Source: an uncultured Chitinophagales bacterium
Lineage (GTDB): Bacteria > Bacteroidota > Rhodothermia > Balneolales > DATFMH01
Length of the DNA stretch: 64,000 nt
Direction: 5' to 3'
Assembly (NCBI GenBank): GCA_964572735.1
Contig: CAZNHE010000005.1
Coordinates: 8,170-72,169, forward strand
The position numbers were made by a program, and so were the translations under genes. The notes beneath the pieces are model-generated. The model saw nothing but the letters and a program-made list of their open reading frames with translations. It ran no database searches and was not told where the DNA came from. Positions 18,397 through 33,662 of the stretch are shown here, in pieces (position 1 is the first letter of the stretch; each line of letters starts with the position of its first letter).

Positions 18397-18524
18397 CGAC
18401 GGATATAAGATTGCCTCCAAATCGGGCTTCAGCCCATGGAAACGCCGGGCGATCATGGGCTAAAGCCCGATTTAGTGAAAGGCTTTGTAGTCCGTCAGCT
18501 AAAGCAGACGGCAAAGTTTTTTGC
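18377..18524 (+). ncRNA. Candidate structured small RNA, or a stem-loop array ending in a terminator-like hairpin with a U-tract
   Basis: Three stem-loops occur in tandem. H1 is 18383-18402 (CCGCCGGC-TTAA-GCCGaCGG). H2 is nested: the outer stem AAATCGGGC (18419-18427) pairs with GCCCGATTT (18465-18473), and the inner stem GCCCATG (18432-18438) pairs with CATGGGC (18454-18460). H3 is CCGTC (18492-18496) with GACGG (18507-18511), followed by CAAAGTTTTTTGC. No family is recognised. Confidence 0.3.
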
Positions 18525-18828
18525 TACGATCACTTTATCCCTGGCGGGATTTATGGGGAACAGATGATCCCACTCCGACAAATCCGTTTTATTTGATTGT
18601 CATTTATATTCATGCCCGTACCCGACAGTCAAATTCCCGATTATGAAATACGAGCACCATCCGGTGGATCGGAGTGAGCACGAATGCCCGGTAACGTAAA
18701 TACAGGGATCCCGGACTCACGTTACTTTAAAAGAAATTGTTTACGCGGTACGGCCAACTTCCCCTTTGATAGTACCGGTAAATTTACTTCACGATTAAAA
18801 AGGTTATAGCTTGTTAAGGGCTTTTCGT

Positions 18829-21081
18829 TCATTTTAAAGTAAAGATATCCACCACAGAAGACGTTACACTGGTACCGCTGGGATAAGTGTATCGGCTTAC
18901 GGCTCCTCCTCCGAAAAGAATTTCATTGCCGGCAGCAGCGGCGGCCAGGTTTGTCCGGTCTACGCTTAATTCCATAGTTGTCCACTCGCCGGTGCCGATA
19001 TCATATACATCTACGGTCTTTGCAGATCTGTGGGATTGAGTATCGCCGGCAACGCCTCCGCCTATCAGTATTTTATCTCCAAGACCGGTGGCTGCCAGAT
19101 TCCGTCTTGCCTGACTGAGCTGTGCCGTACTCCACGTGCCGGTGTTTACATCATAAATATCAACGGTTTTCGATGCGAAATCATTGCCACCGGTATATCC
19201 ACCCGCAAAGATGATCTTGTTTCCCGCTGCTGCGGCTGTGTGCCAGTATTTTGCTTCGCTTAAGTGCGTTGTTGTCCATGTACCGGTATTCACATCATAA
19301 ATGTCGACTATGCTTAACGGTGAGCCGATGCCTACAGCATGCCCTCCTGCAAAAACTACTTTATTCCCCGCGCCGGCAGCGCATAATTCGTATCTCGCCT
19401 GGCTCAAATGGGATACGGTCCATTGTCCGGAAGTTACATCATATATATCCACGGTATTTGAAAAACCTGAGCTGCCGTATCCTCCTCCGAAAAGAATTTT
19501 ATTGCCGGCAGCTGCGGCGGCCAGGCCTTGTCTTGCTTCGCTCAACTGAGCGGTTGCCCATTGGCCAGTACTCACATCATAAATATCTACCATATTTGAA
19601 GGGGAATCGCCATCGTATCCTCCTGCGAAAACAATTTTATTACCCGCTGCTGCGGCGGCCAGGGCGCTTCTGGCTACGCTTAAATGCCATTGCGTCCATG
19701 AATTGGTAGTCACATCATATATGTCGACTTCAGCGGAAGGCCCGGAGCCACCTGCGAAAACGATCTTGTTGCCTGCACCCGCGGCAACCAGTCCTGCTCT
19801 GGCGGGAATGGTTGCAGAACCTGTGTATTCAACCTCTCCGGCCTGTTGCTGTTTTTGTTTTATTTCAAAAATAACATCGGCGTTATCATTATGGGCGGAT
19901 TGTCCATTTATCCTTATCCATAACTGTAATGCAACGGCCCCTATTTGTTGATCATAGTTGAATTTATAATCCGGGATAACAATTTCAATTTTTGTGTTGC
20001 TCCATGATACTACTTTTGGATCCGGTTGAAGCCGGCTTACGGGAATATTTTTTGTCCATAATTCTATGGTTGCATTTTTCGTATCAGGGTTAAGATATTT
20101 CCCGGTAACAGTGACCGTATCGCCGCCGCTAAAATGATACGCTTCTTTCCCGGGACTGGTCACATTGGTGATAATGGGATCATTTTCGAAATGTGCCGGG
20201 TCGCTTTTTATCCCGTTGCTGCTTACGACAAAATCCACATCAAAGGAAGACACAAACTGATCTACGTCATTTCTCTTCAGCGCTATTTTATCACCTTCAG
20301 GTTCCTTTATATATTCATCTGTTCCCTTCCTGTAAATGGAATCTATACTTACCTGATGGTTTCCATTGACCAGTACTTTTATTGCAGCATTTTGTTGATC
20401 CAGATTAGTCACGCTAAGATAATAGGGAGAAAGTGAATCGCTTGTATGTTTATACACAACTTGAATTACAGGCTTTTGCTGATAAATATAATCCACACTA
20501 TTGGATGATTTCTCATTTACCACCACTTTAACTTTTACTTTGCCCACAGCATGCTTTGGCGGTGCAACTATCAATTTTGTAGCTGAAAAAGATTGTAGGG
20601 AAGCGGCTTTGCCGTCAAACGTTACGGTTACCTTGCTTTGGTCATCGCCAAAGTTTTTACCGGTGATGGTTACTGCATTGAGGGTATAATCCCAGCCTAC
20701 TTTTGGAGAGATGCTGATAATCTGTGGCTGATCCGGTGTTAAATAGGTAAATACCGGTCCCCCTGCCGATTTGTCCCTCACTGTTACGGTTACTTTGCCG
20801 GTAGTGCCGTCCTGCGGCGCTATAACTTCCATGCTGGTTTCCGTGGTCTTTTTTATTTGTCCGGCCCGGCCATTGAATTTTACCGTGTTTTCCGCAAGAA
20901 TGAGGCTAAACCCTTCTCCCTTGATCGTTACCGGCGTTCCGGGTTTTCCGCCGGTTGGTGATATTTCATTTACCACAAGAATATCATCGGTTTCTGTATT
21001 ATTTATTTTCCGGCATTGGGTTAGAAGTATGCAGGAAAAGAAAAGTAGAAATGATATTTTAAAAACCGATTGCTTTTTCAT
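18829..21081 (-). CDS. Secreted (possibly lipidated) protein with IPT/TIG domains and a 7-blade Kelch-type beta-propeller
   Basis: The signal peptide is MKKQSVFKISFLLFFSCILLTQC. IPT-like segments include ISPTGGKPGTPVTIKGEGFS and ISPKVGW..VTITGKNFG. Seven tandem ~45-50-aa units follow the pattern A(A)AGNKI(V/L)F(A/G)GG ... VDIYDV.TG.W. The ORF track opens at 21120, but the ATG at 21081 gives the signal peptide. Confidence 0.8.
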   Translation of the reverse strand: MKKQSVFKISFLLFFSCILLTQCRKINNTETDDILVVNEISPTGGKPGTPVTIKGEGFSLILAENTVKFNGRAGQIKKTTETSMEVIAPQDGTTGKVTVTVRDKSAGGPVFTYLTPDQPQIISISPKVGWDYTLNAVTITGKNFGDDQSKVTVTFDGKAASLQSFSATKLIVAPPKHAVGKVKVKVVVNEKSSNSVDYIYQQKPVIQVVYKHTSDSLSPYYLSVTNLDQQNAAIKVLVNGNHQVSIDSIYRKGTDEYIKEPEGDKIALKRNDVDQFVSSFDVDFVVSSNGIKSDPAHFENDPIITNVTSPGKEAYHFSGGDTVTVTGKYLNPDTKNATIELWTKNIPVSRLQPDPKVVSWSNTKIEIVIPDYKFNYDQQIGAVALQLWIRINGQSAHNDNADVIFEIKQKQQQAGEVEYTGSATIPARAGLVAAGAGNKIVFAGGSGPSAEVDIYDVTTNSWTQWHLSVARSALAAAAAGNKIVFAGGYDGDSPSNMVDIYDVSTGQWATAQLSEARQGLAAAAAGNKILFGGGYGSSGFSNTVDIYDVTSGQWTVSHLSQARYELCAAGAGNKVVFAGGHAVGIGSPLSIVDIYDVNTGTWTTTHLSEAKYWHTAAAAGNKIIFAGGYTGGNDFASKTVDIYDVNTGTWSTAQLSQARRNLAATGLGDKILIGGGVAGDTQSHRSAKTVDVYDIGTGEWTTMELSVDRTNLAAAAAGNEILFGGGAVSRYTYPSGTSVTSSVVDIFTLK

Positions 21082-21109
21082 GATTTTAATTAGCCTGGCT
21101 AAATAAACG

Positions 21110-23209
21110 CTATTGCACAATTAACGTTTTCACTTCACTTACAGCCGATTCCTTTCCGTTTTCATATATCGCCTTGATGGCATATTGAAAACTTCCCTTT
21201 CCAATAGATTCTTTATAGGTCATTTTATTTCCCGGTATATTCCCGGCCATTTTCAGCCCTGTATTATTTTTCCCCTTATATAAAATGTAATAGCTGATAT
21301 CGCCGACCGGCGCTGCCCAACTCAGAACGGCACTGCTGTCATTTTTACTCACTTCAAAATTTTTGATGACGCCGGAATAGCCTTTACTGTACACATATAC
21401 ATTCAGAGGAAATGATTTACCGGAACTTAGTCCGCTGCTGTCAAAGGCTTCAATGGAATAGGAATAATTATGCAGCGGCTTTATATCATTGTCTGTGTAG
21501 GCGGAATCAATGGCAGGTAATTCTTCTATTAACACCCATGTATTTGTACTGTCGTCTTTGCGATAAAGCTTTTGAGCGGCTACATCTTCGCTGGCGCTGC
21601 GGTACCATTGCAATGCTACACTCGTATCGCTGACATTAAAATCATGTATGATAGCAGCCATTGGCGGGATCACATCCGGTTTTGCTAATTTCAATATCTC
21701 GGAAGCAGGACTGGCGTTCCGATTGCGGTCGTAAGCTATGACTTGATAGTAAATATCTTTAGTTAGCGTTTTCACGGTTATGGAATCGGTAAAGAGGGTG
21801 TCGGGTATCAAGATTCCAAGCAGTGGTGTAAAAACCTGGCTTGGATTGTTGCTGAAGAAAATGCGGTACCCGGCAAGATCCGGTTCAACATTCCAGTTCC
21901 AATGGATATGCACTATTCCCGTTGAATCGATTTTACCGGCTAAGCCAGTAGGTTGGGCAGGAGGGGTGTGGTCTTCGGCGTTCATATACGCCGGCATGGA
22001 CCTTCCGGAATTTAAAGCGGTATCAACAGCCGCTACGATGTAATAATTGGGCGCTCCTGTCTTTGGATGTTCATCCGTGAAGTCATGGGTTTCAAAACCC
22101 AGGAGGCTGTCGGTAAGCGATTCATAGGGCCCGTCCAGGTTAACACTCCTGCCAACGACATAGCCAATGAAGTCTGCTTCCTTAACGTTTTTTTCCCAAT
22201 GAAAGGAAATTTTGGAGCCGTTGTCGGTATTTTGAATCTGGGTGATGATAGGCGGGTGAGGCGGCGTGAGGTCTCTGCCCATTCCTATGACCACATCGGA
22301 AGGTTTCGACAGATCACCAAAGGCAGAAATGCCAATTACCCGGTACCTGTATTTAACATAGTTGGCAATGGTGGTATCTATAAATTCAATGGGTTTGGGA
22401 AGTCTTCCTTGTCTTTGAGAATAGACATAAGGCAAGCGGTTCAGCCGTTTATAATTTTGCCCATCCTTCGAACGCTCAATATAAAATGCCGAATAGCGGT
22501 CGCCGGTTGGATTATTATACCAAAAGAGGTGAATAACCTGATCTCCCGCAACCGTTTTCAAAATGGGGGACGGACTTGGTTTGGTTATTAAACCTCCGTT
22601 TACAAATACCAGAGCCGTATCGGAGCGAATAATTCTTTGCGAATCTACCGGGGTTACGGCATAGGTGTAGTAATGGTCTTTGTCTATTGTGCTATCCTCA
22701 TATCTTAATCCGAGGCCTTCGGCAATTTTGGCATTGAAATCGGCAATCATCAGGGCGAAGCCAAAGCGGTTTTGCTGTTCATGGTATTTGTTTATGATGT
22801 CTTGCATAGACATCGAGCCGGCTTTAAACGGTAATGTTTCGCCATACAGCAACTCGGCGGCCATGGCGGCCAGGCTGTCGTGTGAGGCTTCAAAATACTG
22901 CTGCCACTGCTGCATGGTCCACACCGGAATGTGGACAGAGTCTTTGGCTATTTCTTTAAAATCGCCATTAGCATCTTTTTCATATACTCGGCGGGTAACC
23001 TTGTAGCCGTCTTGCTTTGTCAGAATCCATGTGGCGGCGTCACCGGGCGCCCATCGCAGTACCACTTTACTACCATAATTTTTATAAATGAGATGCATGT
23101 GGGCAAGGGTATCTGCCTTGGTCGTATCCGGTTTCGCAGGGGCATTTATATTCTGCCCGAACCCCAAGCCGGGTAAGAAGAGTACGACGAAAAACAGATA
23201 TTTTATCAT
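21110..23209 (-). CDS. Secreted multi-domain protein with FN3-like repeats, function unknown
   Basis: The 699-aa ORF has the signal peptide MIKYLFFVVLFLPGLGFGQ and repeated FN3-like strand patterns (V.L.W, YR..A.D..GN.S..S, e.g. YYQVIAYDRNRNASPAS and YSYSIEAFDSSGLSSG). Confidence 0.65.
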   Translation of the reverse strand: MIKYLFFVVLFLPGLGFGQNINAPAKPDTTKADTLAHMHLIYKNYGSKVVLRWAPGDAATWILTKQDGYKVTRRVYEKDANGDFKEIAKDSVHIPVWTMQQWQQYFEASHDSLAAMAAELLYGETLPFKAGSMSMQDIINKYHEQQNRFGFALMIADFNAKIAEGLGLRYEDSTIDKDHYYTYAVTPVDSQRIIRSDTALVFVNGGLITKPSPSPILKTVAGDQVIHLFWYNNPTGDRYSAFYIERSKDGQNYKRLNRLPYVYSQRQGRLPKPIEFIDTTIANYVKYRYRVIGISAFGDLSKPSDVVIGMGRDLTPPHPPIITQIQNTDNGSKISFHWEKNVKEADFIGYVVGRSVNLDGPYESLTDSLLGFETHDFTDEHPKTGAPNYYIVAAVDTALNSGRSMPAYMNAEDHTPPAQPTGLAGKIDSTGIVHIHWNWNVEPDLAGYRIFFSNNPSQVFTPLLGILIPDTLFTDSITVKTLTKDIYYQVIAYDRNRNASPASEILKLAKPDVIPPMAAIIHDFNVSDTSVALQWYRSASEDVAAQKLYRKDDSTNTWVLIEELPAIDSAYTDNDIKPLHNYSYSIEAFDSSGLSSGKSFPLNVYVYSKGYSGVIKNFEVSKNDSSAVLSWAAPVGDISYYILYKGKNNTGLKMAGNIPGNKMTYKESIGKGSFQYAIKAIYENGKESAVSEVKTLIVQ

Positions 23210-23219
23210 GGTATTAATT

Positions 23220-23939
23220 TTATCTATTTCTGTATATGGTAATGGTTCGGCTAATGGGTAAATTTTGAATTTTATTAAAATCGATGAACCCTATCAGCAC
23301 TTTATAACCGCCTGAAAGCTCCGCGCTGGTATGTGCCGGTGCTATGGGTACATCGGTTATGGGATCGATGAAGCGAAAATCAGCCTTTATACTCGGCGGT
23401 TTGTGCAAACTTAAAGTCAAATCTCCGTTGTATTTCCCTATGTATATTTGATCCAGCATGCCCTGCATTTCATTGATTTTATATTCATAATATTTAACAC
23501 GTCTTTGATATTCTTTGGCCAAATCGTAATTATAATTTGCAAGAGCATTGGCAGAGAAATCTGTATAATCATCTTTCATTTTTTGATAAAAAGGTATTTG
23601 CCTTTCCAGTGCGTATTCCAAAACATCGATGTCTTTATTAGCTCTTAATGGGATGGCATAATCTACTGTCATATCCTTGTTTGCGGCTAAAATAGCATAC
23701 GCTTCAGCCTTTTTTAAGTTTTCTTTGGCTGATGCCGAAACATAAGTAGCGTTGCCTGAAGCTTTCATATTGGAGATTGCATTGCCCTTTCGGGTTTTAG
23801 TTACTGTTTGTTTGACGATTACATTTCTTGGCACGGCATTCATTACACTGTTCATCATACTTGCTGTAAACCTGATTTGTGCCATTGCGGTAGTCGTTAT
23901 GAAACATGTTATAAAAATTAAAAAGATACGTTTCATCAT
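23220..23939 (-). CDS. Secreted 239-aa protein, function unknown
   Basis: The signal peptide is MMKRIFLIFITCFITTTAMAQ. The ATG immediately follows the stop of the upstream giant gene (TAAATG). Confidence 0.6.
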   Translation of the reverse strand: MMKRIFLIFITCFITTTAMAQIRFTASMMNSVMNAVPRNVIVKQTVTKTRKGNAISNMKASGNATYVSASAKENLKKAEAYAILAANKDMTVDYAIPLRANKDIDVLEYALERQIPFYQKMKDDYTDFSANALANYNYDLAKEYQRRVKYYEYKINEMQGMLDQIYIGKYNGDLTLSLHKPPSIKADFRFIDPITDVPIAPAHTSAELSGGYKVLIGFIDFNKIQNLPISRTITIYRNR

Positions 23940-26900
23940 TTAATTGTTTACTTGATTGAATTTTGTGGCTGTGTTTACCATTTGTGAACGCTTAACTACC
24001 TTAAACCCCGATACATTTATTCCATTGATATAAGTAGGTTCGGCGGCTTTTATTTCCTTTGCAGTGAGTGGCTGATCGACGTCTTCAATGAATACAGGCC
24101 GCTGCGGAACACAATACCTGCCAAAGCTTACAGTACACCCAATCCCTTCTAATTGTAGTTCTCTCGGTGATAGGCCCTTCTCGATGCGGGCTTTATCCAA
24201 GTCTATATTCGCATCATCAAATTTTTTATATACCAGGGGTACCGCCTGTTCTTTCATCCATTTGTTTAAATCATTATTCTCTTTCAGGACTACCAAAGGC
24301 ATGGTATAGAACATGATTTCTTTATTGATATAATTGTCACTGGTGAAGCCTTTTACATCATACGTATCAAACCGCTCTGCTACTTTTAATTGAGAACCCG
24401 CGCCAAAGAAGTGATAAAGTACTTTATCAAAGCGAGCCCCGGCCATTTTATCCGCCAATGTATTATAACGGCTGGTTTTGAAATGATAGGAGTATAAAAC
24501 AACATCCAGGTTTTTATTACCGAGCGTTGCTTTATGGTTACTTGTATTAAAGGACTTATTTATATAGGCTGAATTTTTTTTATTATCAAAAGCCTGATAA
24601 TACTGGCTGCCTACTTTCATGGTATTACTGCCTTCCGTGTGAATGGCTCTATTGAGCCTGCTGGCCAAAGCAGGTGAAATATTATAAACGATGTAATCAT
24701 CCAATTTGGAGAATTGTGTACGCTTGATGATCTCAACCCTGATAATCGTCTCGTTGGGCAGTTTGGGTATATCAAAGTACAGATATTGGCCTGCTCCCTC
24801 AGTTATTGGACTTTCATAACCTGGTAATTCCTTGCCACCTTTAACCGGTGTGAATCGCGCAAAAAGCTTATATTTTTCTTTAACATTACGCAGACATCCA
24901 TAAGCTTTGTCCAGTATAATAGCGCCCCTTTTAGATTCACCCTGTAAAAAATAACGCTGATTGGGGAAGGGGTAAGCTCCAAGCCGATTGCGGGAGTCAG
25001 AAATTATCTGGTCCGGTTTGCATGCTCCTGTTTTAAAGGTTGAGGTAGAATCGCCAATTACGGGCTGCCCATTTTTATCTATAGCAGGAGTCCAACTATC
25101 TGTATAATGTGCCACAAAATTGGGTCCAATTGCTATCTTACTTTGCATAGCCTTCACCTTGATGTGCGTACGGTAATTAGTTTGGCCTTTAAGCGCATCG
25201 ATTGTCAATAGAGTGAGGTCATGATGATTATCATCGAAAGCGGGATGGCTGTCTTTGTCGCGGTAATCAGCGTAAACGGTATTATCATCAGTATTAGTTA
25301 TCGTTAAGTCATCAATTTCTATTTTAAATCGCCATGGCCTGTGGAAATTGGGGTCGATCAATTCAAACGGTTTTTCAATAGGATAGTTGAAGACGAATTC
25401 AGGATATGCATTTAAGGGTACTTCGGTTTTTCCATTGTTGGGTTTGACCTCTTGAATAAGCGGTAACGTAAATGCGCTTTTTTGTACTACGCACGCTTTT
25501 CCAATGGCTACTTTAAAGCCAATATTACCCTCAATCAGTCCATTTAACACTTCATAATGGGTATTGGTATATCCTTTAAGCCACATAGGGTTTGGAAGGC
25601 CGGCCTGGACCAGTATATCCGCCCGCAATCTTAAAGCAGTAAGTTTACAATCGTGGCAGAAAAACATATCCACATAAAGCCCAAAAGCACCTTCAAGCCC
25701 GGCATAAGCCTGTCCCAAGGCATACCAGCCATTAAATCCCCCCGCCTTTTCGCCATCAGCACAGGTTACCGCAGATTGAAGCGCGACGTCAAAACCAAGA
25801 CCGGCTTTGGCCTCAAAAAAGAAAACCAAAAACCTGAGGTCGTAGCTAAATTTAGCCGATGCCCCCATGACAACACCACCTTTAGAACTCATATGGAGTT
25901 TTTGGTAACCGGGCAGTTCCCCCACGTTTACAATACCGGGATCGGGTTCCGGCAAAGAAGAATTTATTTTATTGCCGGCCATGAAGTAGGCTTTCAGTTT
26001 TAGGTCCAGGATATGGAGAGGATCCTGCATAGAAAGGTGTATGCGTCTGCCATAGTCATTAGGGCCGGGGAGCGGCCGCGGATTTCCAATTTTTATATAA
26101 TAGTTTTGGTTTTTGGCATCGGCCAGTAACGCGAAATTTCCGCCTCCTTTAAACCAGCCAAGGTAATTTATGTCCACGGCAGCATTAATTGAAAAAACCT
26201 TGTCAGATACACCGATCAACCAGTCCACATCCGCTTTTACGGGCGCATTATCGTCAGCTTCTAATACATCACTTCCGCTGATTTTAAATAATTGAATGTA
26301 GGCATTGCCGTTTAGCGATTGAAGCGAAAAGCCACCCGCTACATTAAATGTAGCACCCAGTGTTCCGATACCTGTAAATAGGGTCCCATCCGAACTGCTT
26401 ATGCCCACCATTAATTTCATGCCAAAAGAACCTGGACGTGGCTGATATTTATCCAGCCTGTATTTGCTGCGGTTGGCAAAATAATCTTCCGGTTTCATGC
26501 TCTTCAGAACCGTTGGCGCCAGGTTATAATATGCCCCGCCGCCAAGCCCTTGCAGCGAAATGCCGGGGCCAATAGGAACGGGTTCGGGCAGAGTGCCGTA
26601 GGCGTCAAAATACCAGTAGTTGTTACCGCTTTTATTGCCAAACATCGCATGGCAATCTACCGAGGCGCCCGGCAGCCCGGCGAACGAGGCATGAAGTATG
26701 CCACGAATGCCGTCGCCGTAGGCTGGGTCGTCTCTCATAAAATCAATTTCACCCTTATCTATTTGAACAATACCCGCGAGGTTGCCGGAAACCTTAACCT
26801 TATTTATGTTGAAATCGGTTCGCTTCCAAATAGGCCGGTCGCCGCCCAACACGTTGGCTGATAAAACAAGAGTCGTGGTAGCATCGGGCAGCAGTTTGCT

Positions 26901-29546
26901 GTTGATGTCGCTCAGTGTTAACCCCAAATCAAATTGTAACCCAACATTGTTTCCAACCATTGTTGGACGCACATCTGTAATGCTTACCGGAAAGCCTGCA
27001 ATGGAATGTTGGGGTGAAGAGAAGGAGAAGCCGGTCGATATATTTCCCACCCTCACATACGGTTCTTCTGAACGTACTACAAGATTTTCTACTTTGATTA
27101 GATCTAACCCAATTTTATACCCTTCTATATTGCCTTCAATATTTAACTTTCCCGAAAGCGCGGCTGATGCTGCTGTATTACCTGTTTCGGTATTGTTGGT
27201 TACCTCAATGGCTATATTATTGAGGTCGATGTGTGCCCACCAGGCAGAAAAATCAATATCATTCTTTTGTTTGGCAATGAATTGATATTTGACATCACCG
27301 CCATTTGCTGAAGAAGAGAGAGTAGAGGAGTAGGCGATACGGCTTTGTACTTTATTTTTATCCGAAAATGGAAGTATTATCTGCCCGTACAGACCGCCTT
27401 CTTTAAAGGATGAATTCAACAGCTTGATGTTGATCCTATCTACCGAGCAATACCAGCCGCCCACTGAGCCGTCACCGATGTTTACAATATTTTGGGCGGC
27501 AACCACACCGGTTAAACCGGCTTTGTCTAAAATGAGGTTGGCAGCGCTTATTTCAAGCTTATTATCGGGCCGGCGCGTATTTTTTACGATAGAGGGAAGC
27601 GCAACAGTCACTTTTGGAATGAAAAAACCTGTCCATAAGGCATTTCCGATGACTGGATTCTTTCCGGCTAATGCCGCATCATTAAACGATGAAGGCATGC
27701 CTGTCGGGTTTTTCAAGGTGGAATGATCGTAATACGCATTCCCATTTAAAGTAAAAACAACATTTTTTAGAGAAGGCACTATAAAAGGATCCATAGCCAC
27801 TGAAGCCGTCCAGCTGCTCCAGCTTTTGATGTCTGCGTCCAGGATGGCTTTTTCGGGAGAACCGTTGGCCTGGGTAATTTGTGAAGCCGGAAAGTTATAT
27901 TCGGCATGAATGTGAAACTTCTTCAGCTTGTTTTTGGAATAGAGAACATAGGTACCTGGCTTTGTTTTCGACTGATAGCTTTTAAAATTCAGGTTAAGGC
28001 CCGGTACATTAAAGTCTTTATTCAAAACAAATAACGCATTGCCGCACATGCAGGTAGCATTGCTGAAACACACGTCCTTTGCCGTCATTGAGAGCACCTG
28101 GTTTGCATCCGCAAGTTGCACGGCAGCCACCGCATTATACGTGGCTTGTGAAGGTGTAATATTCAGACTTACAACGGCAGCATTCACCCCGTCGGGTGTT
28201 CCCGCGGCATGTAAACCGAAAGGCAGCATAAAGCCTGCGCCGTTTTTAATCGCATCCAGGTTGTAATTCCTTATGCGATCTATGAATGATTTGTAATTGG
28301 CTGTAGAAACGGAAGGAGAGCCGCCATTAGTCAAAAAATCGAACCCATTAGCTTTTTTGGCTACGGCACGTCCCGCAATGGCAATTCCGCTTTTATTGAC
28401 TACAACTTCGGTAAAAGTAACCTGCACCGGCACGTTGTTCATCATTATGGTGCCGTCGCCGGAAACGGTACCTCCATTGTTGTTCAGGCTGCCTATTTTT
28501 ATCGGGAGCGTGGCCATGCTAAAGCTGCCGCCGGCTTTGAGTGCGGCGTTATTATTGATTTGATCGAGGGAGGCAACATCCACAGCACAGGAGCAATTTC
28601 CTTGTTCAACTATCGGGAGCTTTCCGGAGACGGCTACAGCTTTTTGGGTTTCACCATACTGAAAGATCCTAATCTGGCTTCTGCCGTTATTCTCAAAGGC
28701 CGTTTTGCCGGTAAGGTCTCTTGCCTGCACCATCAGGGCATATTGGCTTCCTTCATCCAGTTGAAAAGTAGTGAGGTTTGTAAACTGAAAATTATTAATG
28801 GGAATATTGGATTGTTTCAAAAATATTCCCGCGCCGTATTGTACCGCATTATTGAGTGATACATACGGATTTTCGTCGGGTAAAACCTTTACCAGGTACA
28901 GATCATACACCAGCGAAGCGCCCTGCATATTCCCCACGGGCCGTGTCCAGCTAATATTCATATTCTGATTGGGAGTCGGCAGGATCTTATCACCGGGTAA
29001 CGGATTGAGGATCTGCGGCGGACTTACATAACCTACGTTGTAAGCAAAGCACCCTCCAGGTCCCTGAGGATCACTGACAGGAAAATAATTGCCGTTGGCA
29101 TCCCGCGTATAGGCGTAAATGCAAAAAGTATAAAAGCCCTCCGGTATCATGCCAAACTGGAAAAGATTACTGTAAGATTTATCATCCAGATTGGTCTGAA
29201 GATTATTGAGGTTCAGATAATTTTCATCCAGCTGATTGCCCTGAACCACCACGGTTTGCAGGCCCGGTACATGAATGGGAATATTGGAAAAAACATTAGG
29301 CGCCGTCTGTATATATTGCCCACGGTCATTGTCAAGCCGCCCCCTGATATAAACATCCCTCGCAATCTGTGAATGATTGGTAAATGAAATGATCGGCTTG
29401 TATTTATAATCGGAAATGTAAGCGGAATAAGGCGGCGCGAGCTGTACCTGCAACGTAATGGGATAATTGTTCTGCCCAAATGATTTATTTATAAAACCAA
29501 ATAGAAGCGGTATTAGAAATACTATTTGAAATATTCTTTTTGTCAT
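23940..29546 (-). CDS. Giant (1868 aa) secreted protein of unknown function
   Basis: An uninterrupted ORF has the signal peptide MTKRIFQIVFLIPLLFGFINKSFGQ. The N-terminal region has Ig/FN3-like patterns (ISWTRPVG..YDLYLVKV). I recognised no catalytic, RTX, RHS/YD or T9SS C-terminal-domain motif. Confidence 0.7.
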   Translation of the reverse strand: MTKRIFQIVFLIPLLFGFINKSFGQNNYPITLQVQLAPPYSAYISDYKYKPIISFTNHSQIARDVYIRGRLDNDRGQYIQTAPNVFSNIPIHVPGLQTVVVQGNQLDENYLNLNNLQTNLDDKSYSNLFQFGMIPEGFYTFCIYAYTRDANGNYFPVSDPQGPGGCFAYNVGYVSPPQILNPLPGDKILPTPNQNMNISWTRPVGNMQGASLVYDLYLVKVLPDENPYVSLNNAVQYGAGIFLKQSNIPINNFQFTNLTTFQLDEGSQYALMVQARDLTGKTAFENNGRSQIRIFQYGETQKAVAVSGKLPIVEQGNCSCAVDVASLDQINNNAALKAGGSFSMATLPIKIGSLNNNGGTVSGDGTIMMNNVPVQVTFTEVVVNKSGIAIAGRAVAKKANGFDFLTNGGSPSVSTANYKSFIDRIRNYNLDAIKNGAGFMLPFGLHAAGTPDGVNAAVVSLNITPSQATYNAVAAVQLADANQVLSMTAKDVCFSNATCMCGNALFVLNKDFNVPGLNLNFKSYQSKTKPGTYVLYSKNKLKKFHIHAEYNFPASQITQANGSPEKAILDADIKSWSSWTASVAMDPFIVPSLKNVVFTLNGNAYYDHSTLKNPTGMPSSFNDAALAGKNPVIGNALWTGFFIPKVTVALPSIVKNTRRPDNKLEISAANLILDKAGLTGVVAAQNIVNIGDGSVGGWYCSVDRINIKLLNSSFKEGGLYGQIILPFSDKNKVQSRIAYSSTLSSSANGGDVKYQFIAKQKNDIDFSAWWAHIDLNNIAIEVTNNTETGNTAASAALSGKLNIEGNIEGYKIGLDLIKVENLVVRSEEPYVRVGNISTGFSFSSPQHSIAGFPVSITDVRPTMVGNNVGLQFDLGLTLSDINSKLLPDATTTLVLSANVLGGDRPIWKRTDFNINKVKVSGNLAGIVQIDKGEIDFMRDDPAYGDGIRGILHASFAGLPGASVDCHAMFGNKSGNNYWYFDAYGTLPEPVPIGPGISLQGLGGGAYYNLAPTVLKSMKPEDYFANRSKYRLDKYQPRPGSFGMKLMVGISSSDGTLFTGIGTLGATFNVAGGFSLQSLNGNAYIQLFKISGSDVLEADDNAPVKADVDWLIGVSDKVFSINAAVDINYLGWFKGGGNFALLADAKNQNYYIKIGNPRPLPGPNDYGRRIHLSMQDPLHILDLKLKAYFMAGNKINSSLPEPDPGIVNVGELPGYQKLHMSSKGGVVMGASAKFSYDLRFLVFFFEAKAGLGFDVALQSAVTCADGEKAGGFNGWYALGQAYAGLEGAFGLYVDMFFCHDCKLTALRLRADILVQAGLPNPMWLKGYTNTHYEVLNGLIEGNIGFKVAIGKACVVQKSAFTLPLIQEVKPNNGKTEVPLNAYPEFVFNYPIEKPFELIDPNFHRPWRFKIEIDDLTITNTDDNTVYADYRDKDSHPAFDDNHHDLTLLTIDALKGQTNYRTHIKVKAMQSKIAIGPNFVAHYTDSWTPAIDKNGQPVIGDSTSTFKTGACKPDQIISDSRNRLGAYPFPNQRYFLQGESKRGAIILDKAYGCLRNVKEKYKLFARFTPVKGGKELPGYESPITEGAGQYLYFDIPKLPNETIIRVEIIKRTQFSKLDDYIVYNISPALASRLNRAIHTEGSNTMKVGSQYYQAFDNKKNSAYINKSFNTSNHKATLGNKNLDVVLYSYHFKTSRYNTLADKMAGARFDKVLYHFFGAGSQLKVAERFDTYDVKGFTSDNYINKEIMFYTMPLVVLKENNDLNKWMKEQAVPLVYKKFDDANIDLDKARIEKGLSPRELQLEGIGCTVSFGRYCVPQRPVFIEDVDQPLTAKEIKAAEPTYINGINVSGFKVVKRSQMVNTATKFNQVNN

Positions 29547-29554
29547 CCGCTTCT

Positions 29555-31306
29555 TTAAAATGAGTAATTGTAACGTGCTGAGACCATCATTTGCCTGCGC
29601 GATGGATTTATGATCGTATTTTTATTTTTTGTTGCGGTATAATTCGCATTTAGCTGCAATGAATGCCGTTTCAGGAATATGACGTTTATACCGGGGTTTG
29701 CCGAAATCGTATGGGCGGTGGCATGGTTGTTCAACCTGTTTGAAAAATAGCCGCCAAAGAGGGAGAGCGTAACGGAGGTTATAAAATGCTTTTCGATTGA
29801 TGCATCAGGCAACAGGCTTTTGCTGATACCGAGATTGTATCCTATTGTAGCGGTTTTATTGCCGGTAAGTGCAGTGTTAAAATAATTCAGTGTGTTGGTG
29901 ATGCTGATCTTTTTCTCGGGAAAAATAAGCGTATAGATCAGACTGCCCATGGTGGAAGTGAAATCCTGGCTGCTTTGCGCCTGGTTGTTGTTCTTTAACC
30001 CCTGAAGGCTAACCTGCATGCTGATGGAATGTTGAATGGTCTTTTTATTGATGAATAAATGCGGCGAAATAGATATAGATTGGTTCACCTGGCTGATGCG
30101 TACCGAATCGTAGCGTGCGTAAGTCGCCGGGTCCTGAAGTCGCGGGATGATCTGCTGCGAAATGCCATAGTTGGAATATTGAAGACCAATGCCAAAGGCC
30201 TGCGATGGTATAAAATTTATGCTGATGTTTCCAATGGTTCTTTCGGTATTGCTGACCGCGGTTTTAGCCAGGTTATTTTTCTGAAACCCGAGGTCGGATT
30301 GCAGATGCAGCTTATTTTCAAGTAATGAAAGGTCAAAACCGGCAGTGTATTGTGCTATATCCGTCTGCATATAGAAGGCGCCCATGGATTTATAATCGGG
30401 ACCCACTCTGCGGTATTTCAGACGAATATTTCCTTTACTAAAACGATACCGGATACCCGCTTCTCCGGCAAACGCAATCCGCGAGCTTGTTTTAGGTGAA
30501 AATGAGGCAAACTTCGACCATTTCTCGTCCGTTTCCAGTAAGTCGCCTCCAACATTCCTGGTATAATAGCTCGCCGCGGCATCTATGTTAAAAGAGACGG
30601 CTTTCAACAACGTGGCCTGTCCTTTGATACCTGCTACCTGATTGGCTGCAGGCTTTAACTGCACATTTTCCGGGTTGATGCCCTGGATAGAAGTGCTGTC
30701 GTCTTTAGCCTGCAGATAAGAAAATTCGATGAAGTTTTTGGAAGATCCATAGCCTATTTTCGCGGCAAAGCCCTTGCGTTTGTATAAAGGGATATTGTTG
30801 TTCAGGTTATTATATTGTGAGATATTTGTAACCGCATCATTGAATTTCCCATATATGAAGGCCGCCCTGAATTTGCCAGGAGTAAGTTCAAAACCGGCAC
30901 CCAGTATCTGCTGGCCGCTTAATGTAAATTGGGAAAAATTCAGAGAGCGCCAGCCAAGGTGCAGCTTCGCCCATTTGTAATGAGGACTCATGCCAAACCG
31001 GTTGAAGGAACGCGTACTGATACTTCTGCTCTGGCTGGCAACCATGATATTTACCGGAATAGAAAACCCATACAGCGAAAGCACCGGATTGCCCTGAATA
31101 AAATAGGAGGGTGAATGGCCAAATGAAGAATGAGATAAATTGCCATTTCCATTGGAAAGGTCGCTGTAATAATTTAGCCCTGAGGAAATGCTGCCGTGAA
31201 AAGTGATCAATTTCCGATTTTTCAGATGTGCCAGGTCCTGGGAGTGAACGGCAATTACACAAGTGGAACTAAATAAACAGCTTAATATGAATATTTTTTT
31301 GCGCAT
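29555..31306 (-). CDS. Outer-membrane beta-barrel protein (583 aa) with no POTRA or plug domain recognised
   Basis: The signal peptide is MRKKIFILSCLFSSTCVIAVHSQ. Alternating hydrophobic/polar beta-strand patterning runs from about residue 30 to the end, and the C-terminus is ARYNYSF (terminal aromatic). The gene lies 8 nt upstream of the giant gene. Confidence 0.65.
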   Translation of the reverse strand: MRKKIFILSCLFSSTCVIAVHSQDLAHLKNRKLITFHGSISSGLNYYSDLSNGNGNLSHSSFGHSPSYFIQGNPVLSLYGFSIPVNIMVASQSRSISTRSFNRFGMSPHYKWAKLHLGWRSLNFSQFTLSGQQILGAGFELTPGKFRAAFIYGKFNDAVTNISQYNNLNNNIPLYKRKGFAAKIGYGSSKNFIEFSYLQAKDDSTSIQGINPENVQLKPAANQVAGIKGQATLLKAVSFNIDAAASYYTRNVGGDLLETDEKWSKFASFSPKTSSRIAFAGEAGIRYRFSKGNIRLKYRRVGPDYKSMGAFYMQTDIAQYTAGFDLSLLENKLHLQSDLGFQKNNLAKTAVSNTERTIGNISINFIPSQAFGIGLQYSNYGISQQIIPRLQDPATYARYDSVRISQVNQSISISPHLFINKKTIQHSISMQVSLQGLKNNNQAQSSQDFTSTMGSLIYTLIFPEKKISITNTLNYFNTALTGNKTATIGYNLGISKSLLPDASIEKHFITSVTLSLFGGYFSNRLNNHATAHTISANPGINVIFLKRHSLQLNANYTATKNKNTIINPSRRQMMVSARYNYSF

Positions 31307-31345
31307 CCCAGCTCTATATTGGCACTAAGGCTTATTTTTCAAATT

Positions 31346-31361
31346 TTGAGCATTTGCTCAA
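31346..31361. promoter_or_regulatory. Inverted repeat TTGAGCA-TT-TGCTCAA in the island operon promoter region; candidate operator
   Basis: The 7-bp arms lie 40-55 nt upstream of the ATG at 31306. On the minus strand the repeat sits between a TTG and AAAATTTG, resembling the Bacteroidetes -33/-7 promoter elements (TTG/TAnnTTTG). A direct repeat AATTTCAACT also occurs at 31360-31369 and 31388-31397. Confidence 0.3.
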
Positions 31362-31562
31362 TTTCAACTCACTGTGTACTCCACGGTAATTTCAACTATT
31401 TCCATAGCCGGTGTGTTTAATACGGCTATTTTTTATATCACCATCAATCGATTCTAACAGCTGAAATTTTATTGGTGATAAAGAAGCGTTGCCTGTTTCT
31501 ATTGCAGGTTTATTATCAAATAATCCGGTATTTGTCGTTATTTCCTATTATATCAATCACAT

Positions 31563-32063
31563 TTATTGCTTTAATAAAACCCTGAAAAATCCATTGGTCA
31601 CTTCCATCGTTTCATCAGACTTATAGGGACTTGCGGTAAAATGAAAGGTCCCCTCTATCACTTTATCATTGGCTTTGGTAAGTACATATTCTCCCATTTT
31701 TGCCTTCAAGAGATTGCCATTTCCAAAATCCAGATCGGCGCCCGTCATTTTGAGGTGTTTTCCAACCTTGATAAATGTCCGGTAAATGTAGAACGCGATC
31801 CGTATTTCTCCATTCGAACCTTGAATAAAGTGCGTGTTGGATTTATTGATTTCCATCATATTAGATGCTTCCCATGGTTTGCCGTCAACGACCGCCCTCA
31901 TGGTATAACCCTTTGAGGAAGTGACTACTTCCGGCGGTGCATACTTTTTCATGGCTTTCTGAATGGCGTTTGCCGTTTTTTGTGCCTTCTTGTGGGCAGG
32001 ATTTTGACAGGCCGCGGGAAATACGCACACGAATAAGAATAAGAGATAAAATAGAGGTTTCAT
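31563..32063 (-). CDS. Small secreted or lipoprotein-like protein (166 aa), function unknown
   Basis: The signal peptide is MKPLFYLLFLFVCVFPAAC, with a Cys at the likely cleavage site. The coding sequence is AT-rich and lies inside the island. Confidence 0.55.
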   Translation of the reverse strand: MKPLFYLLFLFVCVFPAACQNPAHKKAQKTANAIQKAMKKYAPPEVVTSSKGYTMRAVVDGKPWEASNMMEINKSNTHFIQGSNGEIRIAFYIYRTFIKVGKHLKMTGADLDFGNGNLLKAKMGEYVLTKANDKVIEGTFHFTASPYKSDETMEVTNGFFRVLLKQ

Positions 32064-32367: not shown

Positions 32368-33192
32368 CTAAAAAGCGAAGTGATAAGGGTTAAACGAAGA
32401 CGGAGTTGTGTCCAGGAATTGTTTGAACTCTCTGACGAGATGCATCTGGTCGAAATAACCTGCATCACAGGCTACAGCAGCCCACTTGGCATCTGTGGAT
32501 CGCATTCTCATCTCCAGCATGTTCTTAAACCGGAGCATACGCGCATATACTTTCGGACTTACCCCCACCTCCTTTGAAAAGTTCCTCTCAAATTGCCTCA
32601 TTGACAGGTTGCTCGCATCCGCAAGCTTTGTAATGGAAATATTACCGCGGTGCCGCACGAGATAATCAGCGGCCTTGTTGGTAGATGAACGCCTGCTTAA
32701 GTGCCCCCGGGAAAGCCGGATTAAATAAGGTTCTGCGATATCGATACACTCCCTGATGTTGCGGGCATATAGCAGCCGTTGGGCGAGCTCGTGAAACAGC
32801 GGATGAATACCGGCTGCGGGAACCGCTTCATTTGTAAATTCAGAGACAGGAATGCCCAACAAACGGTATAGCCCTGCGGGACGAAACTTTACGGTAAAAG
32901 AGATAAACAGGTTGTTTATCCGGATGGAATACTTTTTGAAGGTACGCGGCCCCCGGATGGTGCAGCGCTCGAAAGGAACGGACCAGCCGGTGGCATCATC
33001 AAAAGTGGCAAAATGGTCACCCAGGAAAAAATCAATGGAACTCACTTCCCTGAGCGGCATGGCCTTGCTAATATCATGTCCGGCAGGAGGCATAATGTAG
33101 CGGTACACATACTGATTGATGAACGGCTGTAGTGCCGGATGCGGAGTTTTATGGATCTTCAGGTTGTTGGGTGAAAGAAAAGTACCACTCAT
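32368..33192 (-). CDS. AraC/XylS-family transcriptional regulator
   Basis: The C-terminal double HTH includes ITKLADASNLSMRQFERNFSKEVGVSPKVYARMLRF and ACDAGYFDQMHLVREFKQF. The ORF track opens at 33312, but the ATG at 33192 (MSGTFLSP) is the more likely start. Confidence 0.8.
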   Translation of the reverse strand: MSGTFLSPNNLKIHKTPHPALQPFINQYVYRYIMPPAGHDISKAMPLREVSSIDFFLGDHFATFDDATGWSVPFERCTIRGPRTFKKYSIRINNLFISFTVKFRPAGLYRLLGIPVSEFTNEAVPAAGIHPLFHELAQRLLYARNIRECIDIAEPYLIRLSRGHLSRRSSTNKAADYLVRHRGNISITKLADASNLSMRQFERNFSKEVGVSPKVYARMLRFKNMLEMRMRSTDAKWAAVACDAGYFDQMHLVREFKQFLDTTPSSFNPYHFAF

Positions 33193-33662
33193 GGCCCCTC
33201 CTTCTTTACAAATAACTTTGCCGAAGAAAAGACAGTCATAATATCCTCGCAGTAAAAAATGATAGTAATAAGTATCCGGAGTTAAAGGGAGTAACCCAAT
33301 AGTAAATAACAAAAAAGCCGTAAAAATAACAACCCATGAATCGGACAGATCTATAGCCGGGTTTATTGTCAGCCTCTGAAAAAGTTCCGATTGTCATCCT
33401 GCCATCGACGGACTGCCAGCTAAACCGATAAGCTGTTTCCAACAGGTAATTGGCTGCCGGCGGTATAAAAAGGGATGAGGTATCAGCAAAGACCAATGAT
33501 GTCCGATTAACGATCCTTTATTTTCAGTCCCTCTATTCATGTCCCCTTACTTTTTAATATCCCCGCCTTTCAATACCTTTAGCATTGCATTTAATGTTTA
33601 TGCGCATAATATTTCAGCCCGAATCAAATCATTTTTTCAATTCCAAATAATCAACCAAGTTC

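Follow-up and report, generated by a model that had tools for sequence, protein, structure and literature searches.

A conserved Bacteroidota gene cassette pairs a large outer-membrane barrel with giant secreted proteins that share an N-terminal module

What kind of envelope system is encoded by an operon in which every product carries a signal sequence? Such an operon occupies positions 31306-18829 of the minus strand in the 64,000-nucleotide stretch analyzed here (the window), which derives from an uncultured Chitinophagales bacterium. Five co-directional genes, separated by gaps of 8, 0, 10, and 28 nt, encode an outer-membrane barrel (31306-29555, 583 aa), a giant protein (29546-23940, 1868 aa), a small protein (23939-23220, 239 aa), an FN3 protein (23209-21110, 699 aa), and a TIG/Kelch protein (21081-18829, 750 aa counted from the ATG). 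The 0-nt gap reads TAAATG (junction sequence aatTAAATGatg). Direct sequence reading confirmed the 28-nt spacer before the TIG/Kelch gene, whose mechanical open reading frame begins at a TTG (21120) that would overlap the FN3 stop codon. N-terminal signal sequences were read in all five products: in four, a K/R-rich n-region leads into a hydrophobic core, and the likely cleavage site is immediately followed by Gln (..VHSQ, ..SFGQ, ..AMAQ, and ..GFGQ), and the fifth, the TIG/Kelch product, has a lipoprotein-type Cys (..FFSC / ..LLTQC). Coordinates and sequence agree with the first-pass annotation, which had described five packed co-directional genes, the TAAATG junction, and signal peptides throughout. 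The same arrangement was found again in dozens of distant genomes and is therefore more than chance.

The cassette had no match in the family libraries or literature searched. For the barrel, the giant, and the 239-aa protein, no family was matched in Pfam, NCBIfam, PADLOC, or the PDB sequences. The earlier impression of an architecture not mappable to any described system stands: these profile and sequence searches, together with Foldseek against PDB and BFVD, gave no confident placement in a characterized one. At E <= 0.1, no model for a type IX secretion system (T9SS) C-terminal domain, autotransporter, RTX, RHS, two-partner secretion (TPS), or pilin protein was matched by any of the five proteins, and all but the TPS model had been reported as missing signatures before. 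CxxCH and GGxGxD motifs are absent from the five proteins. PorP_SprF and type-A or type-B C-terminal domain models were found in none of the five, nor in 43 barrels and 42 giants.

The barrel (29555..31306, minus strand), for whose family no library model exists, was predicted by AlphaFold2 to have ~26 strands (pLDDT 80, pTM 0.70) and neither plug nor POTRA domains, which bears out its initial description as a large barrel lacking POTRA. It ends in ..YNYSF. Foldseek retrieved only generic large barrels at ~9% identity, with MtrB scoring best (TMq 0.48) and FimD at 0.44. None of 43 family members matched a Pfam or NCBIfam family, and profile scans detected no SusC/SusD, Plug, or TonB-dependent signature. 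The most strongly conserved motifs, SPxYKW in a predicted periplasmic turn and DPDYKSMGAYYxQTD in a long loop, lie outside the membrane strands and so favor a role in binding a partner over that of a simple porin.

The barrel belongs to a large family, almost wholly of Bacteroidota: a profile search at E <= 1e-3 returned 3436 representatives of 50% identity clusters, and at least 596 genomic matches were confirmed. The analysis kept 80 fetched loci, almost all in Bacteroidota. Within these 80, a giant of 1.8-2.6 kaa lies directly 3' of the barrel gene in 71/74 loci, and an FN3-rich protein gene follows the giant in 60/62. This strong co-conservation supports the first-pass interpretation, with refinements: the conserved unit comprises the genes for the barrel, the giant, and the FN3 protein; the IPT/Kelch gene is replaceable, and the 239-aa gene is limited to a subclade. 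The 239-aa protein (23220..23939, minus strand; no Pfam or NCBIfam family) is a clade-restricted, fast-evolving secreted accessory: homologues (cluster 7, present in 7 loci) or same-position ORFs of 175-245 aa are confined to the closest class-1 loci. The last gene (18829..21081, minus strand) encodes a lipoprotein with three IPT/TIG domains and a six-repeat Kelch propeller, as first proposed (Pfam: 3 TIG and 6 Kelch stretches). Its homologues carry NHL or no propeller in place of Kelch, and the equivalent place in other loci is taken by lipoproteins with PKD, PKD+TIG+NHL, or collagen repeats. In these accessory lipoproteins, acidic residues often directly follow the lipid-anchored Cys. It is one variant of a replaceable adhesin-type lipoprotein encoded upstream or downstream of the cassette.

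The giant has a mass of 205 kDa. Its signal peptide (aa 1-25; 29472..29546, minus strand) is predicted to be cleaved between ..SFG and Q, and Gln likewise immediately follows the signal peptide in the 20 other giants listed. The next segment, termed the N-module (aa 26-300; 28647..29471, minus strand), is a candidate barrel-docking or targeting module. It is followed by a class-1 core (aa ~380-1500; 25047..28409, minus strand), modeled as an all-beta meander of 12-21-residue strands similar in amphipathicity to those of the barrel, and by a C-terminal region (aa 1501-1868 plus stop codon; 23940..25046, minus strand), whose conservation is confined to class-1 giants and which matched no T9SS C-terminal domain model. 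The AlphaFold2 model of aa 400-1599 reached pLDDT 77 at a low pTM of 0.45; with this model, Foldseek revealed no structural homologue of the core in PDB or BFVD, its matches LptD, ApoB100, SlpA, and MtrB having TM <= 0.16 and those in BFVD TM <= 0.12. The giant payloads yielded neither toxin nor enzyme domains. The class-1 core is also present in giants lacking the N-module. Class-2 bodies are arrays of CarboxypepD_reg domains, a few members matching SdrD_B or SpaA; in SusC-type transporters, CarboxypepD_reg domains are also found at the periplasmic face, a point against the docking-and-export reading given below.

Only the first ~300 residues are common to all cassette giants. The N-module is 83% identical to that of another giant, P0022, which is unrelated over its other 2200 aa; hhalign across giant classes aligned this region alone (E 4e-81), and in about 70/80 loci phmmer detected it in the giant whose gene follows that of the barrel. 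It is predicted to form a beta-sandwich/FN3-like fold and opens with a conserved strand directly after the cleavage site (motif PPYSxYxSDY). Distances among N-modules correlate with those among barrels (r = 0.81), and barrel distances with FN3 protein distances at r = 0.48; some barrel/N-module co-variation is expected anyway from gene adjacency. In two Fibrella loci (L081 versus L080), barrels are 84% and N-modules 81% identical, whereas their giants have different bodies and their FN3 proteins share 16% identity. The FN3 protein (21110..23209, minus strand) has six FN3-like domains (fn3 E 2e-11; six W-strand repeats ~100 aa apart), consistent with its earlier reading as FN3-rich. Its identity is 0.35 within class 1 and 0.17 between classes, following the giant core class and not the barrel, and its gene also follows core-only giants in loci L006 and L007; sequence comparison suggests that it is the cognate partner of the giant core. 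Barrel and N-module form one unit, and giant body and FN3 protein a second, swapping together. As unrelated bodies share an N-terminal ~300 residues that co-vary with the barrel, the TPS-like logic suggested by the first-pass annotation gains support.

Upstream of the barrel gene lies a 256-nt leader and promoter region (31307..31562, minus strand), read from sequence and with no match in Rfam. It contains cAAAATTTG ~40 nt 5' of the barrel ATG, a sequence similar to the Bacteroidota -7 element, TAnnTTTG. An AraC-family gene with a DUF6597 domain (32368..33312, minus strand; Pfam HTH_18 1.5e-14, HTH_AraC, and DUF6597; true start codon uncertain) is probably the local regulator. Regulators of this type (cluster c6) adjoin the cassette in 8 other loci, and in L008, the closest relative among the matches listed, one lies directly upstream of the barrel; the regulator is part of the cassette neighborhood. 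Two-component genes adjoin the cassette in 51 of the loci fetched. Many cassettes have sensor kinases of about 1000 aa upstream, and both of those looked up contain Reg_prop/Y_Y_Y domains.

We infer physical docking, transport direction, surface exposure, and biological role from these comparisons, and put at roughly one in two the probability that the barrel docks, and probably exports, the giants through the N-module. The operon would then be a conserved, inducible outer-membrane module, almost wholly of Bacteroidota, in which the plug-less ~26-strand barrel is dedicated to a 205-kDa all-beta giant exported by Sec and recognizes it via the N-module, which covers the first ~275 residues of the mature protein. 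Barrel and N-module would be co-inherited, the exchangeable giant body and its cognate six-FN3 protein would act as the second unit, and the adhesin-type lipoprotein (here IPT/TIG plus Kelch) and the small clade-specific protein would be accessories. Most likely, the N-module is docked in or threaded through the barrel, anchoring the giant at the outer membrane; the giant would probably be exported by the barrel, and the surface structure so formed would serve in adhesion or in capturing polymers. This reading draws support from a natural fusion, P0291, known from one metagenomic contig, which carries an N-module-like domain at the N-terminus of a barrel; this end is normally periplasmic/lumenal, however, and the fusion is equally compatible with a periplasmic complex.

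Two alternatives appear unlikely, about equally so. In the first, the giant would remain beneath the outer membrane, suspended from the barrel by the N-module, as a beta-sheet scaffold within the periplasm or across the envelope, its amphipathic meander carrying or shielding hydrophobic cargo (lipid, lipopolysaccharide, or lipoprotein) like the LptD jellyroll or AsmA/TamB bridges. The long amphipathic strands that make up the core in a hairpin meander fit this arrangement, as do the periplasmic end at which P0291 bears its N-module-like domain and the top Foldseek matches, full-length LptD and the ApoB100 beta-belt, though at TM of only 0.08-0.16. However, AsmA, TamB, LptD, and LptD_N models were unmatched in 22 class-1 and 20 class-2 giants, the giants begin with a signal peptide that is cleavable (Gln at +1) instead of an inner-membrane anchor, unrelated body classes are interchangeable, one being a CarboxypepD_reg array, and the accessory proteins carry adhesin-type domains.

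The second would make the cassette an atypical polymer-utilization locus, likened to the non-SusCD cellulose cluster chu_1276-1280 of Cytophaga hutchinsonii, in which uptake would run through the barrel, while the lipoprotein, the giant, and the FN3 protein would bind glycans or polymers at the surface. Non-canonical barrel-based PULs exist (PMC12016534). A GH5 cellulase gene adjoins the cassette in 4 loci, but the great majority of loci, this window included, have no glycoside hydrolases. The upstream ~1000-aa kinases, the two looked up having Reg_prop/Y_Y_Y, point the same way, as does one accessory lipoprotein that combines PKD domains with a cellulose-binding Sde0182_C domain; yet SusC/SusD, Plug, and TonB-dependent signatures are missing from the barrel, no giant is encoded in the chu cluster, whose binding protein measures 375 aa, and an uptake pore leaves the tight barrel-N-module coupling unexplained. 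As a proposal about what the surface structure does, it overlaps in part with barrel-mediated docking and export.

It is more doubtful that the giant itself sits in the membrane as a huge barrel or pore at the scale of the T9SS translocon SprA, with the 583-aa barrel as assembly or partner subunit. At aa ~1030-1350, strands that are 16-21 residues long and enriched in G, A, and aromatics have one hydrophobic face as strong as that of the barrel, and outer-membrane barrels (SlpA, MtrB, ushers, and porins) are among the Foldseek matches, but at very low TM-scores and with a core model whose pTM is 0.45; giants lack a conserved C-terminal aromatic beta-signal (this one ends in ..FNQVNN, and C-termini vary among the 20 others listed), and the same barrel family serves class-2 giants, whose body is different. 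An unrecognized T9SS cargo with a PorP/SprF-like anchor barrel is very improbable: most giant surface proteins of the phylum use T9SS and 3 loci have SprB/Por_Secre_tail genes in the vicinity of the cassette, but the proteins scanned matched neither type-A/type-B C-terminal domain nor PorP_SprF models, and the conserved targeting-type module is at the N-terminus, with no conservation at the giants' C-termini.

Since the barrel is nearly always paired with a giant via the common N-terminal module, the cassette may be a new means for Bacteroidota to mount huge proteins on the envelope. Among known systems, it resembles two-partner secretion (type Vb; TpsB/TpsA, FhaC/FhaB, CdiB/CdiA) in that a barrel gene adjoins the gene for a giant Sec-dependent protein, an N-terminal module of ~250-300 aa is common to divergent or exchangeable giants, and payload-specific accessory genes follow. 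Unlike that system, the cassette occurs in Bacteroidota, its ~26-strand barrel has no POTRA and matches no Omp85, ShlB, or POTRA model, its N-module is predicted to be beta-sandwich/FN3-like instead of the TPS beta-helix and does not match Haemagg_act, and its payloads contain no toxin or enzyme domain that we found. T9SS type-B cargo with a PorP/SprF-like barrel (SprB/SprF) shares the phylum and a dedicated, apparently cargo-specific outer-membrane barrel encoded beside a giant surface protein; there, however, a C-terminal domain is recognized and the T9SS translocon is needed for export, whereas the cassette has no such domain or PorP_SprF signature, its conserved module is N-terminal, and its barrel is roughly double the size.

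Inverse autotransporters (type Ve; intimin, invasin) share the predicted topology, with the N-terminal part periplasmic/lumenal and an Ig/FN3-type array outward, but join a 12-strand barrel and passenger in one polypeptide; the cassette, except for the rare P0291 fusion, uses separate genes and an unrelated, far larger barrel. Chaperone-usher ushers (PapC, FimD) are also large barrels that pass folded beta-sandwich subunits (Foldseek TMq 0.41-0.44), but the cassette lacks the usher plug, N-terminal and C-terminal domains, a periplasmic chaperone, and pilin-size subunits, and matches neither Usher nor PapD models. The 26-strand plug-and-barrel complexes LptD-LptE and MtrB-MtrA match in barrel size (MtrB, best TM 0.48) and show that so wide a barrel can enclose a membrane-spanning partner protein; in contrast, the cassette is unrelated to them in sequence (no LptD, LptD_N, or MtrB_PioB match) and has no haem motifs or LptE-like lipoprotein, and its partner protein is 205 kDa. 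In the giant T1SS adhesin LapA, an N-terminal module retains a domain-repeat protein at or in the outer-membrane pore LapE, and bodies are variable. A giant held at the outer membrane by its N-terminal module is what we propose for the cassette, although LapA has no Sec signal peptide and relies on RTX repeats, a C-terminal T1SS signal, and a TolC-like pore, all three absent from the cassette. By analogy, the cassette would work by the logic of two-partner secretion or of giant-adhesin N-terminal tethering, with parts unrelated to either.

The first-pass annotation had described five tightly packed, co-directional genes whose products all carry signal sequences, and closer inspection bore this out. 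On the minus strand, the barrel gene (31306-29555, 583 aa) is followed by the giant gene (29546-23940, 1868 aa), a small-protein gene (23939-23220, 239 aa), the FN3-protein gene (23209-21110, 699 aa) and a TIG/Kelch lipoprotein gene (21081-18829, 750 aa counted from its ATG). Neighbouring genes are separated by 8, 0, 10 and 28 nt, with TAAATG at the zero-length junction, and the 28-nt spacer ahead of the fifth ATG was seen directly in the sequence. A mechanical ORF call for the fifth gene (18829-21120, minus) begins at a TTG at 21120 and overlaps the FN3 stop by 11 nt. Translation from the ATG at 21081, the likelier start, gives a lipoprotein signal peptide and a normal lipoprotein N-terminus. 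Four of the five predicted N-termini consist of a basic n-region and a hydrophobic core with Gln at the likely cleavage site, and the fifth appears to carry a lipoprotein-type Cys.

G+C content is 42-47% across the operon and its immediate flanks (18001-34000) versus about 50% elsewhere in the window, which could reflect either horizontal acquisition or the amino-acid bias of secreted products. Between the operon end and a convergent, separate gene for a TonB-dependent receptor (15285-17903, opposite strand) lie 925 nt of non-coding sequence (17904-18828), which contain two repeats: a direct one of 27 nt at 18325 and 18370, whose core is CCATTGCCGCCGGCTTAAGC, and an inverted one of 20 nt at 18419/18454 (AAATCGGGCTTCAGCCCATG). 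Rfam gave no match anywhere in 17-34.5 kb of the window. Between the genes for an AraC/DUF6597 regulator and the barrel, at 31563-32063 (minus), lies a gene for a DUF6252 protein of 166 aa whose N-terminus is of the lipoprotein type; among the matches listed, no counterpart adjoining the cassette was seen in other loci.

The barrel, the giant and the 239-aa protein matched no Pfam or NCBIfam family. An AlphaFold2 model of the barrel, built with 43 homologues (pLDDT 80, pTM 0.70), predicts 26 strands, which begin at residue 34 and run to the ..YNYSF of the C-terminus, and plug and N-terminal domains are absent from the model. The PDB matches from Foldseek were all generic large barrels sharing about 9% identity: MtrB at TMq 0.48, FimD and PapC (both ushers) at no more than 0.44, and TonB-dependent transporters. 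The best-conserved motifs of the family, SPxYKW and DPDYKSMGAYYxQTD, fall outside the membrane strands; with the barrel termini assigned to the periplasm by the usual rule, the former is predicted to lie in a periplasmic turn and the latter in a long loop. A B_solenoid_dext match to the barrel covered a 13-residue stretch (E 0.007) and was dropped as weak.

The barrel family is new and very large, and its pairing with giants is near-obligatory. At E <= 1e-3, a search of 1.84 billion proteins returned 3436 cluster representatives, of which 1779 reach E <= 1e-30, and at least 596 matches were confirmed in the species-representative genome set. None of the 288 matches from a word-indexed search had a Pfam domain or an informative name, and named members are all annotated as 'hypothetical protein'. 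The 80 loci kept for analysis, among the matches listed, come from Pedobacter, Mucilaginibacter, Spirosoma, Fibrella, Arcicella, Flectobacillus, Filimonas, Chitinophagaceae and Cytophagales, as well as from Flavobacteriales and Bacteroidales metagenome-assembled genomes, one genome labelled Kapaibacterium and one labelled Gemmatimonadetes.

All ORFs of these loci were searched with the modules of the window and then clustered all-against-all. The co-conservation proposed as a check on the operon was found: of the 74 loci retrieved via the barrel alone that have room for a further gene, 71 encode a 1840-2630-aa giant immediately after the barrel, and an FN3-rich protein of about 500-740 aa comes next in 60 of 62 (both counts among the matches listed). 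The five-gene order of the window recurs in a Puia genome (giant 43% identical) and on a 2.4-Mb metagenome contig (giant 52% identical), where the fifth gene has NHL repeats or no propeller in place of Kelch. Among the matches listed, two-component regulator genes occur in 51 loci, and an AraC/DUF6597 regulator like that at 32368-33312 of the window occurs in 8, including the closest relative, L008. In locus L041, a second barrel gene directly follows the FN3 gene (19743-21449), which suggests tandem cassettes. Locus L006 (19795-23172) encodes a core-only giant and a separate 1126-aa protein with the N-module, the region common to the giants of the cassette (aa 26-300); its barrel is split over two ORFs.

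About 20 full-length homologues of the giant, 41-60% identical, were retrieved; none is named, and the organism, where given, belongs to the Chitinophagaceae (Puia). PDB sequence searches with the giant alone and with both profiles returned nothing meaningful. The core (aa 400-1599) was modelled by AlphaFold2 from 25 sequences (pLDDT 77, pTM 0.45) as a putative all-beta hairpin meander with many strands of 12-21 residues. The FN3 protein matched fn3 in Pfam/NCBIfam (E 2e-11) and contains six W-strand repeats spaced about 100 residues apart. Giants of a second class carry bodies made of CarboxypepD_reg arrays, in place of the window-type core that defines class 1; a few members also match SdrD_B, SpaA or bMG3, and no enzyme or toxin domain was found in class-2 giants. 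A DUF6603 match in one distant giant (E 0.002), a family not mentioned in the literature searched, was dropped.

A lipoprotein with extracellular-type domains is always encoded beside the core among the matches listed, either upstream or downstream. In the window it is the fifth protein, with three IPT/TIG and six Kelch stretches (Pfam/NCBIfam); elsewhere it carries collagen repeats, PKD, PKD with TIG and NHL, or TIG with NHL. The collagen triple-helix version occurs in 18 loci among the matches listed, mostly in Pedobacter and Mucilaginibacter. These lipoproteins of about 600 aa (cluster U605, L004:8071-9924 and 17 further loci) are encoded directly upstream of the barrel in the two genera, and their GXY repeats begin a few residues past the lipidated Cys. 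To our knowledge, collagen-like bacterial lipoproteins linked to an outer-membrane cassette are unusual. Acidic residues often follow shortly after the lipidated Cys of the accessory lipoproteins; such residues are the kind of signal that directs Bacteroidota lipoproteins to the surface. Recognisable relatives of the 239-aa gene were present in 7 loci; in a few others, its place is taken by unrelated ORFs of 175-220 aa (among the matches listed).

The first 300 residues of the window giant are 83% identical to those of P0022, a 2531-aa protein that is otherwise unrelated and carries CarboxypepD_reg domains in its remaining part. Barrel homologues 74-76% identical to that of the window match P0022 and a second protein, P0023, in the length of the longest contig (10890 and 14393 nt) and probably share contigs with them. 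When profiles of the two giant classes were compared, the alignment was confined to the N-module (E 4e-81); a marginal hhalign match between the bodies (67% probability, 93 columns) was dropped as weak. Some giants consist of a class-1 core without the N-module. Each of the 20 further giants listed has, at the start of the mature protein and within about 10 residues of the post-signal-peptide Gln, a short strand and the motif PPYSxYxSDY in slightly varying form. When the 300-aa N-module alone (28647-29546) was used as a query, 0 matches were returned, though the database searched contains full-length proteins that include this sequence or one 83% identical to it; this is probably a search artefact.

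Across 58 complete cassettes, among the matches listed, barrel distances correlated with N-module distances at r = 0.81 and with FN3-protein distances at only 0.48. FN3 proteins are 35% identical inside class 1 and 17% across classes. Fibrella aquatilis (L081) and F. arboris (L080) share 84% identity in the barrel and 81% in the N-module, whereas their FN3 proteins are 16% identical and their giant bodies belong to different classes, which, from the sequences, looks like recent cassette replacement near giant residue 300. The shared N-module, the distance correlations and the Fibrella case therefore show that the cassette is composed of two co-inherited units, barrel plus N-module and giant body plus FN3 protein, recombined at about giant residue 300. 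The earlier description of a five-gene unit stands for the operon itself, whereas the conserved core comprises three genes in two exchangeable units, and the rest are variable accessories and a regulator. In P0291 (L088:4827-7676), a fusion known from one metagenomic contig only, an N-module-like region (pairwise E 1e-6 to giant residues 132-297) is joined to the barrel N-terminus. The protein is 949 aa as called, and translation from an in-frame start further upstream gives it a signal peptide; downstream, the giant (L088:8309-) retains its own N-module.

These observations support the proposal that the operon encodes a candidate undescribed envelope system, whose function we infer. In our preferred reading, to which we give a probability of roughly 0.5, the barrel would bind the N-module and thereby anchor and probably export the giant, and the assembly would form a conditionally expressed surface structure. 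More tentatively, the cassette may represent an unrecognised Sec-dependent outer-membrane pathway of Bacteroidota, T9SS-independent and convergent to two-partner secretion, in which a barrel of ~26 strands exports and retains giants bearing a ~275-residue N-terminal targeting module, with the giant body and cognate FN3 protein as exchangeable payloads. The T9SS is taken to be the route to the surface for very large proteins of Bacteroidota, and the export route of surface lipoproteins is still unknown. A phylum-wide, dedicated and unannotated cassette, in which a large barrel is locked to a transferable N-terminal module on proteins of ~200-270 kDa, may mark another route for placing giant proteins on the envelope. 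Names and testable roles would also follow for 'hypothetical' genes that number in the thousands among Bacteroidota from soil, freshwater and plants. The N-module/barrel pair is a concrete hypothesis with cultured carriers in Pedobacter, Mucilaginibacter, Spirosoma, Fibrella, Arcicella and Filimonas. Even should the cassette prove to be an adhesin anchor, its three new protein families and its clear two-unit modular evolution would merit definition.

The comparison with characterised systems (Pfam, NCBIfam, PADLOC, PDB and Foldseek) gave no confident assignment, in agreement with the first-pass annotation; within the limits of these libraries, the cassette is of no known kind. No description of the cassette was found in the literature searched, including a Bacteroidota fitness preprint. 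Membership in T9SS/PorP, two-partner secretion, usher, LptDE, MtrAB, AsmA/TamB, SusCD and T1SS systems was rejected, as every testable defining feature is missing. PADLOC had no match to the operon proteins and the giant core reached TM <= 0.12 against viral models (BFVD, Foldseek), so an anti-phage defence or phage protein identity was also rejected.

The giant might instead hang under the barrel as a periplasmic lipid-handling or scaffold sheet, which we consider improbable. This reading is kept alive by the P0291 fusion and by CarboxypepD_reg domains being used periplasmically in SusC-type proteins. AsmA/TamB-like bridges, however, combine AsmA, TamB or DUF490-type domains with an N-terminal inner-membrane anchor; Pfam found no such domain among 42 giants, and giant N-termini resemble cleavable signal sequences followed by Gln at +1. 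LptD/LptE couples a barrel and N-terminal OstA jellyroll to the plug lipoprotein LptE; LptD and LptD_N gave no match, and the giant core reached a Foldseek TM of 0.08-0.15 to LptD. The lack of AsmA, TamB and LptD signatures, the interchangeable giant bodies and the adhesin-type accessories likewise argue against a sheet.

An atypical polymer-utilisation complex is also unlikely. A GH5 gene adjoins the cassette in 4 loci among the matches listed. SusC/SusD loci pair a TonB-dependent barrel containing a Plug with a SusD-like lipoprotein, and Plug, TonB_dep_Rec and SusD had no match within the operon. The atypical PUL chu_1276-1280 of Cytophaga is without a giant and has a binding protein of 375 aa (PMC12016534); on both counts, the cassette was rejected as a cluster of this type.

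That the giant is itself membrane-embedded seems quite doubtful. Its core strands equal those of the barrel in amphipathicity. In Foldseek against the PDB, the core had low-TM matches only (0.08-0.16), among them SlpA, MtrB, ushers, the ApoB100 beta-belt and LptD in full length. MtrAB porin-cytochromes consist of an MtrB_PioB barrel and a multihaem (CxxCH) partner; MtrB resembles the barrel in size only, MtrB_PioB gave no match, and the five proteins contain 0 CxxCH motifs. Chaperone-usher pili require an usher with plug and terminal domains and a PapD-like chaperone; Usher and PapD models had no match in the operon proteins, and the likeness of ushers is limited to a generic barrel (TMq 0.41-0.44, ~10% identity). 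T1SS giant adhesins of the LapA type lack a Sec signal peptide and carry RTX repeats together with a T1SS signal at the C-terminus, whereas in the operon proteins neither the RTX model nor GGxGxD repeats were found and Sec signal peptides are predicted instead. A cryptic T9SS cargo is very improbable, as type A (Por_Secre_tail/TIGR04183) and type B (CHU_C/TIGR04131) sorting domains were absent from the five proteins at E <= 0.1 and C-terminal sorting domains also from 22 class-1 and 20 class-2 giants, PorP_SprF matched none of 43 barrels, and T9SS_plug_1st matched one barrel-family member at chance level (E 0.039).

For the preferred reading of a barrel that anchors and probably exports the giant through the N-module, two-partner secretion offers the nearest logic overall, and SprB/SprF-type cargo-barrel pairs the nearest inside the phylum. 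TpsB is a barrel of the Omp85 type that has 16 strands and, at its N-terminus, two POTRA domains (Pfam ShlB, POTRA_2), whereas the cassette barrel is predicted to have about 26 strands from residue ~34 and no N-terminal domains; ShlB and POTRA_2 had no Pfam or NCBIfam match in the window barrel or 43 family members. TpsA has an N-terminal TPS domain, a beta-helix covered by the Haemagg_act model, which had no match in the giant; only weak matches were obtained, to fn3 (E 0.028, aa 193-281) and to a fil_hemag_20aa repeat (E 0.061) that fell below its cutoff. The two-partner-like logic seen at first reading was upheld as a functional analogy only: adjoining genes encode a barrel and a giant, and variable exoproteins share a constant N-terminal module.
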